64,000 nt of DNA, taken from IMG/VR virus record IMGVR_UViG_3300020558_000001, one strand, 5' to 3'. Under the pieces are notes generated by a model. The model did not search any database. It saw only the letters and a list, made by a program, of their open reading frames with translations, and was not told the origin of the DNA. Below are positions 41,231-55,800 of this stretch, one piece after another (within the stretch, counting starts at the first letter, position 1; every line of letters starts with the position of its first letter). Source of the stretch: an uncultured virus (IMG/VR IMGVR_UViG_3300020558_000001) (lineage: Duplodnaviria; Heunggongvirae; Uroviricota; Caudoviricetes). The translations under genes were made by a program, and so were the position numbers.

Positions 41231-42685
41231 CTAAGAACGAGAAAGTATCAATTCTCCACAACGAGATACGTCTTCAATGTGTACACCACATTGGTCTTTA
41301 ACGTGCATCTCATAGTAGTCACCTGAGTGAGAAGCAAGTTTGTTGTTAACTGGACCATAAGGTGTAACAAGACCTGCTGTATAAATCAATGACATACCAC
41401 CTTTTTTCTTAATACGTTTGATGTTAGATTGTTGTCCTTGTCCTGAAAAATCAAGGAAAGTAAAACGCATAGATTCAGTAGGATAACCTGTAACTGGGTC
41501 AATCTCAAAGTTAATCTCTCTATCATCATATAATGGATTATGGATGAGTTCAAGCTCAGCACCATTTGCCATTCTATACTTCACAAACTGATAACCAGCA
41601 GCAAGAGCTTGCTCATTATAATCAGAAGAAGTTTTGTTAATGAACAATTGGTCAACAACTTGAATGAAACCTTTTTTCTCCATCCAATCTTGGATAGCAC
41701 GATGGAAGATAATCATACCATATTCACCTGTGTATGCTTTGATTTTACGTTGTCCACCAGGTTTAACACGAGAGTAGAAAATGTCCATCAAGTACTCTTC
41801 AATTAGAGTAGCAGTAAGATGAGTATAACGATGAATGTGAGAATCTTCCAATTGCTCTTGAATACCAGGACCTGAATAGATTGGTCTACCATTAGCACCA
41901 AGTACAGAATCTGTACTACGAGAATACCAATAACCTCTCTCAAGTTCCTTGTACCATTGTTGCCAGTATTCTACTTCAGCATACTTAATCCAAGTATCAT
42001 GCATTTTACCATTAGGGTCTGGAACCTTAACTGCAAGAACTTGATTGTGTGCATCACCTGTTACTTGATACTTTTTACGGAAACGAGAAAGTCTATTCTT
42101 TAAAGTAATAGGAAGTGAGTATTGAGTTGAACCTGATTGTTCACCTGCTTCTTCATATTGAGAGAATAGTTTTGCCCATTGAGTACCAGGAGTAAGATAA
42201 GTCAAAGGAAGAAAATCAGCAGGATTGTCAGTCATTAGACGTACTGTATAAATCCAACCTTTACCATGTCTGTATGGTTCTTCTTGTACACGAACTTGAT
42301 ATTTTTTGTTAGTAGTACCTGGGTGAAGAACATCACCTGGAACAAACCAGTTTTCATCAAGTTTAATTTTGAAGTTTTGTTTTAGTTTACCAGGAGTTGT
42401 ATTACCTACAGTTTCTACGTTTTCAACTACAACAAGTGGTCTTGTCATACCTGTTCTCAATCCCCATTCCCATTCATTAGAAGTAATCTCTTCTTCTTTA
42501 CCCATCATAGATAGGATGTAAGTCATAGGATTATCTGAATAACGAGTGGCTGAAAACAACCTTGTCATTACTGATTCAAATACATGTGGCTTTGCAATAA
42601 GAGCAGCACCCAAGTGATTGAGGTCTGTCATATTAGCATGCCAAGGCATCTGTTTAGTTACTAACTTATTATTTAATTGTGCCAT
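41231..42685 (-). CDS. Major capsid protein
   Basis: 484 aa; portal-scaffold-MCP order; GRPIYSGPGIQEQLE, YTGEYGM and LIHNPLYDD motifs of crAss-like MCPs; strong terminator follows. Confidence 0.9.
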   Translation of the reverse strand: MAQLNNKLVTKQMPWHANMTDLNHLGAALIAKPHVFESVMTRLFSATRYSDNPMTYILSMMGKEEEITSNEWEWGLRTGMTRPLVVVENVETVGNTTPGKLKQNFKIKLDENWFVPGDVLHPGTTNKKYQVRVQEEPYRHGKGWIYTVRLMTDNPADFLPLTYLTPGTQWAKLFSQYEEAGEQSGSTQYSLPITLKNRLSRFRKKYQVTGDAHNQVLAVKVPDPNGKMHDTWIKYAEVEYWQQWYKELERGYWYSRSTDSVLGANGRPIYSGPGIQEQLEDSHIHRYTHLTATLIEEYLMDIFYSRVKPGGQRKIKAYTGEYGMIIFHRAIQDWMEKKGFIQVVDQLFINKTSSDYNEQALAAGYQFVKYRMANGAELELIHNPLYDDREINFEIDPVTGYPTESMRFTFLDFSGQGQQSNIKRIKKKGGMSLIYTAGLVTPYGPVNNKLASHSGDYYEMHVKDQCGVHIEDVSRCGELILSRS

Positions 42686-51525: not shown

Positions 51526-51865
51526 TATCCTTATTTATTATCTGTAAAAAGTATTCTTGCTTATCTACATTAGGAGTAAGTAGGGAGGGTATCTCATTAG
51601 TTGTTGAAATAAATCCTTTTTGTTTAAGTGTCTTTATATAATTAGAAAGTCCACCATCAGATAAAGACAATTCTTGCTTAACCAATTTCTTAGCAGTAGA
51701 ACCAAATCTATCTTTAGCAATATCTCCCTGCAATGACATAAACAGAGCAAGTACTTCAACTTCTTTAGGTGTAAGTTTAATAGGCAGCAATGAATTTACT
51801 ATATTTAAATGTACCTTATAATACTCACTTACAGGTAATTCTAACCTTTTACTTAGTGCTTTCAT
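51512..51865 (-). CDS. Winged HTH DNA-binding protein
   Basis: LTPKEVEVL...VKQELSLSDGGLSNYIKTLKQKGFI. Confidence 0.65.
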   Translation of the reverse strand: MKALSKRLELPVSEYYKVHLNIVNSLLPIKLTPKEVEVLALFMSLQGDIAKDRFGSTAKKLVKQELSLSDGGLSNYIKTLKQKGFISTTNEIPSLLTPNVDKQEYFLQIINKDNERL

Positions 51866-51889
51866 TTTTACTTTAAGTTTTCTTTAGAA

Positions 51890-51897
51890 CAAAGATA
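51890..51897 (-). promoter_or_regulatory. Bacteroidota-type -7 promoter element heading the late operon
   Basis: TATCTTTG on the minus strand ~25 nt upstream of the first minus-strand gene. Confidence 0.55.
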
Positions 51898-52141
51898 TGA
51901 AATTAGAGTTTGATTTAATTTTTTTCTGAAATTTTTTTAGTAAAATTTTTTGTAGAATTTTTGTGACCTTTAGGTAAGTGTGATTCCCCTCTGCCACCCC
52001 CCACCCAGCTGGCGCTTTCAATTCACTACCCCTCCCATCTGCCTCCCAAGTTTATTTCTTGCCCTCTATTTTTATTTTTCCCTACACCCTTCCCCTCACT
52101 CATGCTTGGCAGAGATTTTTCTGCTTCATCTTTTAAATCCT

Positions 52142-52480
52142 ATGACTATGTCTACTCAAGGTTCAGCTAAGTTTTTCACTCCTAGTGAGTTCGTTGCAGA
52201 GTTTAAAATTGTAACTCTGCGTACTGTAGTAAATAAGAATACCCAAAAGGTTTCTGTATTGCTCAATGAGAATACTCAAGACAAAGAGTTTCTCCCTGTT
52301 AGTAAACAAATTCAAGAAGACCATAATCTTCTTGAGTCAGAGAATCTAAAGTTCTGGGTTCCTATTGAAACTGATAAGAAAGGAAGAGAAGTCCTTGATT
52401 ATCAGAGTGCTTGTCTAATTGTCTGCACTCCAGGCGATTTATCTAAGTTTGTAACCAAAGGTATTTCCCTCGGTTTCTAG
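52142..52480 (+). CDS. First early-region gene, hypothetical
   Basis: Start re-called to ATG 52142 (or 52148); followed by a terminator. Confidence 0.7.
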   Translation: MTMSTQGSAKFFTPSEFVAEFKIVTLRTVVNKNTQKVSVLLNENTQDKEFLPVSKQIQEDHNLLESENLKFWVPIETDKKGREVLDYQSACLIVCTPGDLSKFVTKGISLGF

Positions 52481-52488
52481 ACTTCTCT

Positions 52489-52525
52489 AAGTATAGCGTA
52501 TTCTAATGAGTACGCTATACTTTTC
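52489..52525 (+). terminator. Intrinsic terminator
   Basis: AAGTATAGCGTA / TACGCTATACTT stem plus T-run. Confidence 0.75.
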
Positions 52526-52558
52526 AATTAATTATTAATCTTCTAAATCTTCTAAATC

Positions 52559-52753
52559 ATGGCTTCTTTAATCAAAGCTTTTGTTGTAGGATTACTTATA
52601 ATCCTAAATGTAATCCTCATCATTTGTACTATGGAAATAGTAAATGATGTTACTGAATTTCAAGCTATATGCTTAGGCTTAGCATGTTGCATTACAACTA
52701 CTGGTTGTATTGGTGCAGCTGTAGGTATATCTATGGTAAATACAGAGAGTTAA
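52559..52753 (+). CDS. Small two-TM membrane protein
   Basis: 64 aa with two hydrophobic helices. Confidence 0.65.
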   Translation: MASLIKAFVVGLLIILNVILIICTMEIVNDVTEFQAICLGLACCITTTGCIGAAVGISMVNTES

Positions 52754-52770
52754 TCTCTCTGTATTTTTTA
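52739..52770 (+). terminator. Intrinsic terminator
   Basis: AATACAGAGAG / CTCTCTGTATT stem plus T-run. Confidence 0.7.
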
Positions 52771-52793
52771 TTAACTTATTAAACTAACTAACA

Positions 52794-52880
52794 ATGGTAG
52801 CATTATTATTTGTAGGATTTATGATGTTCATATTTCTTACAGTAGAACTAAATCAAAGAGAACAAAATCCTCACAATTAA
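52794..52880 (+). CDS. 28-aa single-TM peptide
   Basis: MVALLFVGFMMFIFLTVELNQREQNPHN; A-rich leader typical of Bacteroidota starts. Confidence 0.5.
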   Translation: MVALLFVGFMMFIFLTVELNQREQNPHN

Positions 52881-52891
52881 ATCTAAACATC

Positions 52892-52969
52892 ATGGCTGAT
52901 TTATGTGCAATTGCAAGTGCTATACTATTTACAATAGTAATCATAGCACTAAACTATAAAAGAGATTAA
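52892..52969 (+). CDS. 25-aa single-TM peptide
   Basis: MADLCAIASAILFTIVIIALNYKRD; ends inside a terminator hairpin. Confidence 0.5.
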   Translation: MADLCAIASAILFTIVIIALNYKRD

Positions 52970-52990
52970 CATCTCTTTTATTTTTTTTAT
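52957..52990 (+). terminator. Intrinsic terminator
   Basis: TAAAAGAGA / TCTCTTTTA stem plus a long T-run. Confidence 0.65.
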
Positions 52991-52995
52991 TTCCT

Positions 52996-53024
52996 TTCAC
53001 CCTTCCCCCTACATATTTGGGACA
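52996..53024 (+). repeat. C-rich 29-mer, copy 1 (candidate phage promoter)
   Basis: TTCACCCTTCCCCCTACATATTTGGGACA; 26/29 identical to 55042-55070. Confidence 0.8.
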
Positions 53025-53276
53025 CTAACAAAGTCTAGTTATATACACATGGTTACTGGTGTATAATAATGAAAAACGTGTAACTCATAGCATAAGTGAA
53101 ACAAACAATGCATACTTTAATGTATTTACCTAAGAATAAGTAAATTGCAAAAATAGTTGATAACATCATTAATCTTATGGCACCGTGATACCTCTAAATT
53201 TAATTGACAATGACAATTAAATAGGTTAGAAAGTTCAGCATAAGACTATTACATTAAAGTATATTATTTAAAAAAC

Positions 53277-53466
53277 TTAATAACTTCCCAAGTTGTTGAG
53301 GGCACCAGTTTCTTTGATAATTAGAGATACAGTAAAGTGTGACAAAAAACTCTAATGTAAGCAGCGATGTTATATCAGAAGTTATAAATAAATTGCAAGT
53401 TATTTATAATGGAGATATTTCACCTGTGTCAATCCTTACAGATTATCAAAGTTTTAGGTGTAAAAC
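53277..53466 (+). ncRNA. Unassigned structured RNA
   Basis: Hairpin CTTAATAACT/AGTTGTTGAG with TCCCA loop; CACC/GGTG and CTTTGATAAT/ATTATCAAAG stems enclosing nested hairpins. Confidence 0.45.
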
Positions 53467-53708
53467 ACATTATTATGATGAGTTATTGACATTAATAAGG
53501 TAGCACCTTATTGTTAAACAGGTCATCGTTTAACTCAGATAAATTGCCTGTTGTTTATCAGTCATTTTAATTGTTTATAAAAAGTTGCAATGTAAAATCT
53601 AAATATATCATAATAGACGTATTATGAAGAAGGTAGTCTTATACTTTTTAGTTGGTTAAATGGGATGTTGAAATAGAGCACATCACCCTGAATACATTGT
53701 AACTTTTT

Positions 53709-53865
53709 ATTTTAATGCACCACAACTCACTTCCCAAGGGTGAGCAGTTGTAATTGGTTATGTCCATTCTAGAAGGGATATAATCTGTAAACCTACTGTC
53801 ACATAGATGACAGCTTGAAAAACATCGCCAAAGATGTGGGATTACAACTGAGTGCAGAGGGAAAT
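53709..53865 (+). ncRNA. Twister ribozyme-like RNA (P1-type) with extended P5
   Basis: AUUU-UAA-UGCA-CC-ACAA-CUCAC-UUCCCAAGG-GUGAG-[CAGUUGUAAU...AUUACAACUG]-AG-UGCA-GAGGG-AAAU matches twister P1/L1/P2/P4/L4 and both pseudoknots. Confidence 0.7.
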
Positions 53866-53893
53866 TATTTTTAAACACTTTAAATTTAATAAC

Positions 53894-54043
53894 ATGAAAA
53901 ACTATAAAGTTATTTATTTAAATACAGAATATAGTGTTATGTCTATTTCTGTTACAGCTTCTAATGAAGAAGAAGCAAGATTATATGTATATAGTCATGT
54001 AGAAAATTGTATTAAAACACTTTCTGCTGAATATATAAATTAA
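53894..54043 (+). CDS. Small hypothetical protein (49 aa)
   Basis: ATG 53894; MKNYKVIY...VTASNEEEAR pattern common in small phage early proteins. Confidence 0.6.
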   Translation: MKNYKVIYLNTEYSVMSISVTASNEEEARLYVYSHVENCIKTLSAEYIN

Positions 54044-54103
54044 ACCTTATTAAAACTAAATGCAAAAAGAAATTATTTTTAAACATATTAACTACACAAC
54101 ACA

Positions 54104-54499
54104 ATGAAAACATTATTTGCATTATTATTAACATTTACATTAGTATCATGTAAAGCACAAAATCAAATTGACATTGACAACTTAGACAGTTTAATTATTA
54201 CTAATACTTGTCTTGCAGAATTATGCTCATCTAATGATGAAATAGAATGTTTTGCATTCTATTTTGATACAAAACCACACATTATCAAAGCAAATCTAAA
54301 TCATTACAGAGTATTATACTCTTCTGAACTTAGAGATGCAGGATGGAATCCACAATCTCCATTTGACCTTATAAATTTCAGAGTACCTATTGACCAATAT
54401 GGCATCATAGTTACTTGGGAAGAATGGAAAAAAATACATCATATAGATAATGATACTGAAGAGAAAACTTTATTTCATTATCCTATAGAAGAGGACTAA
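54104..54499 (+). CDS. Predicted lipoprotein/exported protein
   Basis: MKTLFALLLTFTLVSC signal peptide with lipobox-like LVSC. Confidence 0.6.
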   Translation: MKTLFALLLTFTLVSCKAQNQIDIDNLDSLIITNTCLAELCSSNDEIECFAFYFDTKPHIIKANLNHYRVLYSSELRDAGWNPQSPFDLINFRVPIDQYGIIVTWEEWKKIHHIDNDTEEKTLFHYPIEED

Positions 54500-54523
54500 A
54501 AAAGGTGGAGAAATCCACCTTTT
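54498..54523 (+). terminator. Intrinsic terminator
   Basis: AAAAGGTGGA-GAAA-TCCACCTTTT. Confidence 0.75.
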
Positions 54524-54731
54524 ACTTTTAATAGTAATACTATTATAAAAGTCAAAAACTTTACAAGGTTTTTCTCTCTTTCCCCCACACCCCCTTTCTC
54601 TCTTTTCCAAAGAGAATACTTATGTTCTGTTCGTATAATTTATCATCGTTATTTTTGTATTTATATGAAAATAACACTTAAAAATTTACATTAGTTCCAT
54701 AACATTCAAAATCTTTTAAATTTTAACATTT

Positions 54732-54986
54732 ATGTCAACATTATATATAACAACAAGAACAATCTTAATAGATTTTCTTAATTATGGTTTAGCAAATTAT
54801 CTGTTTTATGGTTTTAATGTAAAAGCATTAGGGCGAAATAGTAATTCAGAACTTGTTTATGAAGTAACTTATAAAACTAATATAACTGAAGATGTAGATG
54901 CCTATTACATATATACATTTGAGAAGCCAACTAATGGTAAATATATGTCGTTAAGGCAACCTGAACTTGAACCATTACCTTTTTAA
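54732..54986 (+). CDS. Hypothetical protein
   Basis: 84-aa ORF followed by a terminator. Confidence 0.6.
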   Translation: MSTLYITTRTILIDFLNYGLANYLFYGFNVKALGRNSNSELVYEVTYKTNITEDVDAYYIYTFEKPTNGKYMSLRQPELEPLPF

Positions 54987-54992
54987 TTTCCT

Positions 54993-55026
54993 AAGAGAGT
55001 TTATTTTGTAAACTCTCTTTTTTTTA
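54993..55026 (+). terminator. Intrinsic terminator
   Basis: AAGAGAGTTTA / TAAACTCTCTT stem plus T-run. Confidence 0.75.
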
Positions 55027-55041
55027 TTTTCTGTTCCTCCA

Positions 55042-55070
55042 TTCACCCCTCCCCCTACATATGTCGGACA
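55042..55070 (+). repeat. C-rich 29-mer, copy 2 (candidate phage promoter)
   Basis: TTCACCCCTCCCCCTACATATGTCGGACA. Confidence 0.8.
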
Positions 55071-55191
55071 GTCATAGGATTTATAGTCTATATTAAAATC
55101 CTATTGTAGCAATACAATAGGATTATTTTAACTTGCATTATTCAATTATTTATACTATTTTTTATTCATTAACTATTTAAAACAATTTATT

Positions 55192-55800
55192 ATGAGCAAC
55201 GCAACAAGAAAAACAGTTTCAAGAGGAAAAGTAACTTTCTCAAGATTATTTGCATCTGATTACCAAAAGTCAGGTAGCAAAACATTGGAAATCAAGCAAT
55301 TGATTACCACAACAATGTATTATCCTACTAAGAAATTCAATTCTGATTTACAAGATGCACTTTTTACAGAAAGTGATTTTGGAGTTGAAGAAAATGGTTA
55401 TGAAACCACAGAAACTCGTGTAGCATGGATTCCAGTTCCTGCTAATTATAACGAGGCACAAGTAAAACAAATTGTAGCTAATCTTCCTAAAGAAGCATGT
55501 ATCTACAAAATGTTGTCAAATAGTCCTATTCTTACTGATAATCAGCGTCAAGCTGTACATCAAGGTTTAAAGACTATGGATGATTTTGCTGATGCACAAG
55601 CTATCAGATATCCAAATAACAGCGAGTTTGCAGGAGAACTTATCCTTGATGCTCAAAGTAAGGTTCAATACAAAAGAACATTCTTTAGCAAAACAGCTCA
55701 AGAAGATATCGATGAACGTGGTAATGGAAAAGAATATGTTTCTGATGCTTTAGCAGAAGAAACTGAAGGTGCTTCTGTTACTTTTGGTCAGAAAATCTAA
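55192..55800 (+). CDS. Hypothetical protein upstream of PolB
   Basis: 202-aa ORF with acidic C-terminus, followed by a long inverted repeat and T-run at 55806-55907. Confidence 0.7.
   Translation: MSNATRKTVSRGKVTFSRLFASDYQKSGSKTLEIKQLITTTMYYPTKKFNSDLQDALFTESDFGVEENGYETTETRVAWIPVPANYNEAQVKQIVANLPKEACIYKMLSNSPILTDNQRQAVHQGLKTMDDFADAQAIRYPNNSEFAGELILDAQSKVQYKRTFFSKTAQEDIDERGNGKEYVSDALAEETEGASVTFGQKI

Follow-up and report, generated by a model that had tools for sequence, protein, structure and literature searches.

The window, i.e. the whole stretch of 64,000 nucleotides analysed here, has a G+C content of 29-33% and comprises two gene arms: on the minus strand, the left 52 kb encode giant proteins together with head, portal, terminase and tail genes, while the plus-strand genes from 51980 on start with small ORFs, which are followed by DNA polymerase, helicases and primase. 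Since Pfam matches exceeding the curated cut-offs were obtained for the muzzle protein and for tail-ring proteins 1 and 2 of crAss phages, accompanied by a weaker match to ring protein 3/4, the source was identified as a crAss-like phage. The element under study is situated 1.8 kb inside the rightward early/replication arm, within a 900-nt stretch devoid of credible ORFs, and precedes a unit of two small genes:

53709..53865, plus strand: the RNA element, a candidate self-cleaving ribozyme
53894..54043, plus strand: small ORF of 49 aa, with its ATG at 53894, 32 nt past the GAGGG of the element
54104..54499, plus strand: second ORF of 131 aa in this unit, with a terminator-like hairpin (54500-54523) behind it
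52738-52766, 54500-54523, 54993-55019 and 55097-55124, plus strand: terminator-like hairpins after small early-arm ORFs

The product of the 53894 ORF matched neither a PHROG nor a Pfam entry. The four hairpins listed belong to six terminator-like hairpins found in 51800-55300, where 1.1 were expected from shuffles. Moreover, a C-rich motif of the approximate form CCYWYCACCCTTCCCC is repeated on the plus strand: it stands behind a run of T where the rightward arm begins (51980-52110) and recurs at 52990-53020, where the gene-free stretch starts. This motif may represent an early promoter.

An initial annotation of this DNA had described a twister-like self-cleaving ribozyme at the locus. Every structural part that it had named can be read directly from the sequence between 53709 and 53865 on the plus strand:

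53709..53712, plus strand: P1, 5' strand AUUU, pairing with 53862-53865
53713..53715, plus strand: L1, 5' strand U A A, with the predicted cut between U53713 and A53714
53716..53720, plus strand: P2, 5' strand UGCA (53716-53719, pairing with 53853-53856) and C53720 as a likely fifth pair
53721..53725, plus strand: L2, consisting of C53721, the proposed T2 partner of G53738, and ACAA
53726..53730, plus strand: P4, 5' strand CUCAC, pairing with 53740-53744
53731..53739, plus strand: L4 UUCCCAAGG, near-invariant, with CCC 53733-53735 as T1 strand
53740..53744, plus strand: P4, 3' strand GUGAG
53745..53754, plus strand: P5, 5' strand CAGUUGUAAU, pairing with 53841-53850
53755..53840, plus strand: insert of P5 ('cargo'), three hairpins in the minimum free energy (MFE) fold
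53841..53850, plus strand: P5, 3' strand AUUACAACUG
53851..53852, plus strand: junction AG, with G53852 as the likely partner of C53720
53853..53856, plus strand: P2, 3' strand UGCA
53857..53861, plus strand: L1, 3' strand GAGGG, with G53857 at the position of the twister catalytic guanine and GGG 53859-53861 as T1 strand
53862..53865, plus strand: P1, 3' strand AAAU

The MFE fold of 53700-53875 comprises P1, P2, P4, the 10-bp P5 and three hairpins within P5; at -47.1 kcal/mol (z = -3.29) none of 200 shuffles folded as well.

The discovery of twister ribozymes is reportedly owed to Roth et al. in 2014. According to Table 1 of PMC8501958, published twisters feature UAA in L1, a P2 of 4 bp, GC in L2, GUCCCAAGC in L4 and GAGGG in L1, and the window presents in the same order UAA, UGCA(C), CC, UUCCCAAGG and GAGGG. 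Both strands of L1, UAA at 53713-53715 and GAGGG at 53857-53861, are flanked by P1 and P2 and correspond letter by letter to the twisters of that table; the earlier remark that L4 contains one U more than in canonical twisters agrees with the same entries. The likeness to type-P1 twisters with an optional P5 (RF03160) extends to the order P1-UAA-P2-L2-P4-L4-P4'-P5-P2'-GAGGG-P1', the L4 core UCCCAAG, the CCC/GGG pseudoknot of three pairs, P5 as an optional stem, and a predicted cut 5' of a conserved A. In addition, P5 of the window is located where a twister review (PMC5408937) puts this stem.

On the other hand, the departures from canonical twisters are real. The review PMC5408937 gives the L2 GC as conserved and the closing pair of P4 as an essentially invariant G-C, whereas here L2 reads CC, L4 ends in GG rather than GC, and the P4 closing pair of the family varies (C-G 57, A-U 8 and U-A 5 of 70 rows). 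L4 contains its additional U 5' of CCC, and P2 probably comprises 5 bp; an altered P2 length, as stated in PMC5408937, may disturb the twister active site. Further differences from type-P1 twisters are the exchangeable folded RNA of about 20-290 nt in P5 and, in some relatives, a conserved insertion into L4 that exceeds 100 nt; moreover, the family is invisible to all Rfam twister models. The proposed recovery of the element by the Rfam twister model failed: no twister match was obtained at E <= 10, either for the window or for relatives with a P5 insert of 39-56 nt. The run of the whole window at gathering scores gave no hits, 53500-54000 gave no twister and five weak unrelated hits at E <= 10, 16 short-insert relatives gave nothing relevant at the same threshold, and RF03160 and RF02684 each matched none of five records. 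Two other classes were discarded, namely twister-sister (RF02681), which likewise matched none of five records, and hatchet, which scored 13.7 bits (E 8.6) against a gathering score of 51. A match to the FopS sRNA of Bacteroidetes on the opposite strand (53815-53904, minus; 19.3 bits at E 1.7, the gathering score being 56) is probably noise.

In a survey of 2625 candidates, 94% of the predicted twisters were active, and twisters tolerated imperfections in P1, P2, P4 and the length of L4 while being sensitive in the catalytic bases and in the pseudoknots, their least tolerant parts (PMC11662667). Because letters, order and conservation match, the departures are real, and surveyed twisters are tolerant outside pseudoknots and catalytic bases, the element was filed as a divergent twister-type ribozyme, with catalysis predicted and regarded as fairly probable.

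The element is one member of an extensive RNA family that occurs in uncultured crAss-like phages and has not been catalogued. An IMG/VR scan with the 19-mer of P4/L4 found exact matches in at least 120 viral contigs. A 5' core starting with (U)AAUGCACC is common to all listed matches (at least 120), and a 3' core ending in GAGUGCAGAGGG follows 39-310 nt past P4 in 110 of the 120 matches listed; three of the ten listed matches without it had at most 20 bases of downstream sequence. Independently, a seed derived from the 3' core yielded at least 122 matches at no fewer than 121 loci of viral contigs. By fuzzy matching, P4/L4 is exact in 42 of the 122 listed matches, altered in 58 and not recognised in 22, and a rough sorting of the same 122 assigned 77 to the plain type-P1 form, at least 16 to a form with a large L4 insertion and at least five to an L4-less form, with 21 unsorted and three having short flanks. 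Among 185,579 species genomes there were five matches, all on contigs of metagenome-assembled genomes; hence, no host is indicated. A blastn comparison of 53600-53900 with GenBank phages produced no match, the nearest record, a 37-kb fragment (G001), did not match the element, and no description of the family was found in the literature searched, which comprised the main texts of freely accessible papers.

The structure was assessed on three sets: 40 short-insert members, 42 sequences including P4 variants, and a model-based alignment of 71 copies. In all three counts about 90% of the cells are paired, compared with 28-49% in slid-partner controls, and none of 500 shuffles scored as high; the number of pairs changed on both sides ranges from 14 among the 40 short-insert members to 24 of 30 in the 71-copy alignment. 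The twister-like fold put forward before is thereby borne out, since P1, P2, P4 and P5 covary and no shuffle control matches the observed scores. P1 is short and rich in A and U; its three L1-proximal pairs covary, with 57, 52 and 46 of 70 cells paired and five to six pair types each. P2, UGCA/UGCA in the window, reads UGUA/UACA, CACA/UGUG, CCUA/UAGG, UGUG/CACA or UGCGU/ACGCA in relatives. All five pairs of P4 are changed on both sides with 99% of cells paired, and in the 42 sequences of the P4-variant set L4 remains UUCCCAAGG while all five pairs are compensated; in P5, changes on both sides affect eight of ten pairs. G-U pairs are frequent (e.g. UG 17 at the first P1 pair of the 71-copy alignment), which points to an RNA read from the plus strand.

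This family size and covariation rule out a chance resemblance in AT-rich intergenic DNA, an explanation that could invoke the silence of Rfam and the mere four A-U pairs of P1 in the window, and whose probability is negligible in view of at least 120 and at least 121 conserved loci retrieved with two seeds. Key bases are nearly invariant as well: the position after the predicted cut (A+1) has retained its A in 69 of 70 rows, the preceding one (N-1) is U in 64 of 70, the guanine at the catalytic position is found in 65 of 69 rows (A or U in the other four), and the L4 bases are kept in 64-70 of 70 rows.

As to the pseudoknots, the proposed CCC/GGG interaction (T1) is upheld by compensatory changes in relatives and in a sister module described below. 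Two of its three pairs are changed on both sides with 98.5% of cells paired (pair 34-319: CG 61, UG 4, UA 2); in one relative (L361), CCU in L4 faces GAAGG in L1, so that CCU pairs with AGG. T1 is backed in addition by L4-less variants, in which CCC is relocated directly 5' of P2. A scan with TTTCCAAGG for compensated pseudoknot variants returned four matches, none of them family members. The second proposed pseudoknot, CC/GG (T2), stands in part. Its inner pair, C53721-G53738, is kept as an invariant one: the inner C occurs in 67 of 71 rows, its pairing with the inner G counts CG 67, UG 2 and other 1, and a TTCCCAAHG scan for a changed inner G gave 22 matches without a family member. The outer pair, C53720-G53739, is less certain: C53720 covaries at least as well with G53852 (pair 18-312 of the 71-copy alignment: CG 61, UA 6, UG 2, other 2). 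In plain type-P1 copies the outer pair reads CG 62, UG 6 and UA 2, and in six other relatives it is mismatched, with A or U at the position of G53739 opposite an unchanged C (C.A or C.U). Judged from these counts, C53720-G53852 is likely to be a fifth pair of a P2 that would stack on a one-pair T2, or possibly part of a base triple.

The weakened T2 and the failure of the Rfam twister models both speak for a non-cleaving pseudoknotted scaffold, i.e. a twister-derived fold that would be retained after cutting was lost and would present the hairpins of its insert, e.g. to a protein of the phage or the host; L4-less variants, which retain P2, P5 and an insert, would be compatible with it as well. 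Such a scaffold, however, would have no need for a near-invariant A+1, a guanine at the catalytic position and the L4 adenines, nor for a P1 that covaries and sits precisely at the UAA/GAGGG loop, and we consider it unlikely. Our preferred reading is that 53709-53865 belongs to a divergent subfamily of twister-class ribozymes of type P1, which is specific to phages and self-cleaving; it is held with more confidence than doubt, though well short of certainty.

The initial annotation had also reported a three-hairpin RNA carried in P5. The three hairpins are present in the MFE fold; as a fixed part of the element they do not hold, being one of many interchangeable inserts. P5 forms a slot that accommodates structured, exchangeable inserts of about 20-290 nt, whose lengths are broadly spread (39-310 nt from P4 to the 3' core). 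In a close relative (L082), which carries a different insert, blastn identity to the window amounts to 98.7% over 53444-53754 and 92% over 53841-53902; it stops at 53754 and restarts at 53841, the very boundaries of P5. Conversely, the insert of the window (53755-53840) has an 87%-identical copy between other flanks in a second element of L057/L070. A k-mer test revealed 13 pairs of elements with a common insert and unlike flanks, and at its thresholds no pair with the same flanks and a different insert, the L082 case having come from blastn.

Insert exchange also connects the element with a second, permuted twister-like module, termed E2, which lies about 240 nt upstream and was found on 25 viral contigs:

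53270..53468, plus strand: the E2 module
53287-53289, plus strand: T1 strand CCC within UUCCCAAG, with a one-base spacer before P2b
53294-53297, plus strand: P2b UGUU
53298-53302, plus strand: GAGGG
53303-53306, plus strand: P1b CACC
53312-53452, plus strand: insert slot
53457-53460, plus strand: P1a GGUG
53461, 53462 and 53463, plus strand: U, A and A, with the predicted cut between 53461 and 53462
53464-53467, plus strand: P2a AACA
53468, plus strand: C

E2 comprises a twister core in permuted order, lacking a P4 hairpin and having P1 closed by the insert, the slot of which spans 26-170 nt across relatives; the predicted cut falls on the 3' side of the module. Its P1 covaries (CAGC/GCUG, CACU/AGUG), as does T1 (UCC/GGA, CCU/AGG), while P2 and the single T2 pair showed no variation. 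Rfam at E <= 10 returned nothing relevant for 53200-53520, and a published search for further twister permutations obtained no good candidates (PMC10085705). A permuted, P4-less form bears on the question which twister parts are truly essential.

The E2 insert of the window (53339-53443) recurs with 89% identity in P5 of a type-P1 element (L074, 459-563), and a hairpin in it is kept through compensatory changes. The finding of one insert on two different scaffolds therefore suggests that the insert is a functional payload, and these compensatory patterns argue that the inserts are folded and under selection. Both the shared insert and the preservation of insert hairpins by compensatory changes would suit the non-cleaving scaffold considered above.

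Swapping of inserts might alternatively reflect exchange at the DNA level, with the conserved half-cores on either side of mobile inserts serving for recombination and the RNA fold being incidental. The insert breaks at the P5 boundaries and the 13 sequence pairs with a common insert between unlike flanks are in keeping with such a site, and so is the core being nearly identical between phages with major capsid proteins of 23-29% identity, namely the window (41231-42685, minus strand) and the element-bearing phages G007-G011. Against it, compensatory changes preserve five helices and a pseudoknot, for which a DNA recombination site has no use, many G-U pairs would read as A-C mismatches in the opposite strand, the orientation of the element is always that of the local genes, and homologous recombination in conserved RNA cores suffices for the exchange; we therefore regard a dedicated exchange site as very improbable. 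The near-identity of the core despite divergent capsid proteins is what either strong constraint or a horizontally spreading module would produce.

The arrangement of the two modules raises a further possibility. In most relatives E2 follows directly after the type-P1 element, whereas in the window it precedes it; hence, both cuts would free here the RNA between the two predicted sites, 252 nt in length:

53462..53713, plus strand: RNA between the two predicted cuts

Its predicted fold (-60.7 kcal/mol, z = -4.46; none of 200 shuffles as good) displays two long arms, and both ends meet at their junction. Cuts after U53461 and before A53714 would leave this RNA with a 5'-OH and a 2',3'-cyclic phosphate, ends that a host RtcB-type ligase could join to a circle. 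On this reading, the two modules would form natural ribozyme-bracketed cassettes, from which a circularised 252-nt RNA could arise through RtcB-type ligation, and the cores may be frames for a shared cargo pool: divergent crAss-like phages would express, trim and shuffle this pool of structured RNAs, which might be effectors in an arms race with the host. The resemblance to Tornado, an engineered system for circular RNA expression by twisters and RtcB ligation (review PMC11263348), consists in ribozymes bracketing an RNA that would be left with RtcB-compatible ends and in their polarity, given that in both cases the upstream ribozyme cuts on its own 3' side and the downstream type-P1 twister on its own 5' side. 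In contrast to that man-made system, cleavage is predicted and ligation hypothetical here, and the module order is reversed in most relatives, so that the ribozymes would sit inside the excised RNA. A Pfam scan of the 39 window proteins found neither an RNA ligase nor an RtcB gene. This cassette scheme, which would be a natural counterpart of the Tornado design if true, is rated as unlikely.

Irrespective of ligation, the mechanism favoured for the ribozyme would start with transcription of the element rightwards, together with the early, replication-side genes. The RNA would adopt P1, P2 (5 bp), P4, P5, T1 (CCC 53733-53735 with GGG 53859-53861) and at least one T2 pair (C53721-G53738), a fold that would put the U53713-A53714 step at the active site beside G53857, and would then cut itself between these two nucleotides. 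The upstream non-coding RNA would keep a 2',3'-cyclic phosphate. The downstream RNA would begin with a 5'-OH and the folded ribozyme, followed by 32 nt and the 53894 and 54104 genes, the former being the first gene on this 3' cleavage product; the ribozyme would consequently serve as a structured 5'-OH leader of the downstream mRNA, with P5 as a tolerant slot for an exchangeable RNA insert that folds on its own. In this scheme, catalysis, the site of the cut and any effect on mRNA fate are predictions.

The gene context is consistent with such a role. The position of the element just 5' of the 53894 gene, as originally annotated, was confirmed and turned out to be typical across the family: of 111 distinct contexts of family members, 75 have the start of an ORF no more than 140 nt downstream, with a median distance of 46 nt (a count made without shuffle control), compared with 32 nt in the window. 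The 56 nt upstream of the element fold somewhat better than shuffles (-10.5 vs -7.0 kcal/mol). Five of five related genomes of 100-117 kb carry one or two copies of the element, in all five on the strand that encodes a neighbouring series of small ORFs, with the divergent switch 0.8-3.3 kb away.

Contigs from metatranscriptomes cover parts of the locus. Nine runs contained small shares of the stretch, and four of them, freshwater metatranscriptomes each from a different study, were compared; their contigs, which are mostly sequence of relatives, cannot show RNA ends and may include DNA, cover the family core as well as 53270-53321. Some contigs of relatives cross the predicted cut site, which could be due to uncut RNA or to DNA carry-over. 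Downstream bins of the locus were empty, to which no weight is given.

The context described here would fit the processing by ribozymes of long transcripts made early, a role that has been proposed for hammerheads of prophages and of a halovirus (PMC3088659). The clustered hammerheads of Perreault et al. 2011 (PMC3088659), which flank genes in prophages and in early transcripts of phages, are alike in lying between small phage genes a few tens of nt before a start codon and in forming tandem or mixed arrays, for which cutting of long transcripts was proposed. They differ in ribozyme class, an exchangeable insert slot is not described there, and the present system combines two permuted forms of a single class.

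The chemistry of twisters is well studied, and no biological role is known for them in bacteria and phages, as far as we are aware. The subfamily considered here escapes Rfam, the standard RNA catalogue; its core is conserved almost to the letter among crAss-like phages with capsid proteins of only about 25% identity; it occupies a fixed kind of site, tens of nt 5' of small early genes; and its inserts are swapped among phages and also across two distinct ribozyme frames. The question of function has thereby become directly testable, that is, what purpose the inserts have and whether cutting sets the ends or the stability of early RNAs.

Apart from the plain form, several variants were observed. 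In the L4-expanded form (L129, L134, L136, L139, L147, L162, L190, L221, L228 and others), the conserved insertion of more than 100 nt contains a two-part conserved arm, GUGGAUAUAAAGACUUCUUA...UAAGAUGUGAAACCAC, and a second, variable hairpin, CUGAUUAA...UUAAUCAG, and the strand UCCCAAGG is retained. In the L4-less variants (L132, L133, L140, L177, L193 and L200), P4 has a small loop or is absent and (U)CCC(A/U)(A/U) stands immediately 5' of UGCAC; since GGG can pair in a plain helix in these copies, they probably do not cleave. Furthermore, elements occur in tandem arrays in L311, L015, L042, L208, L375, L023 and L004, where the next element begins within a few bases of the GAGGG-P1 of the preceding one, with up to three elements in tandem in L311.
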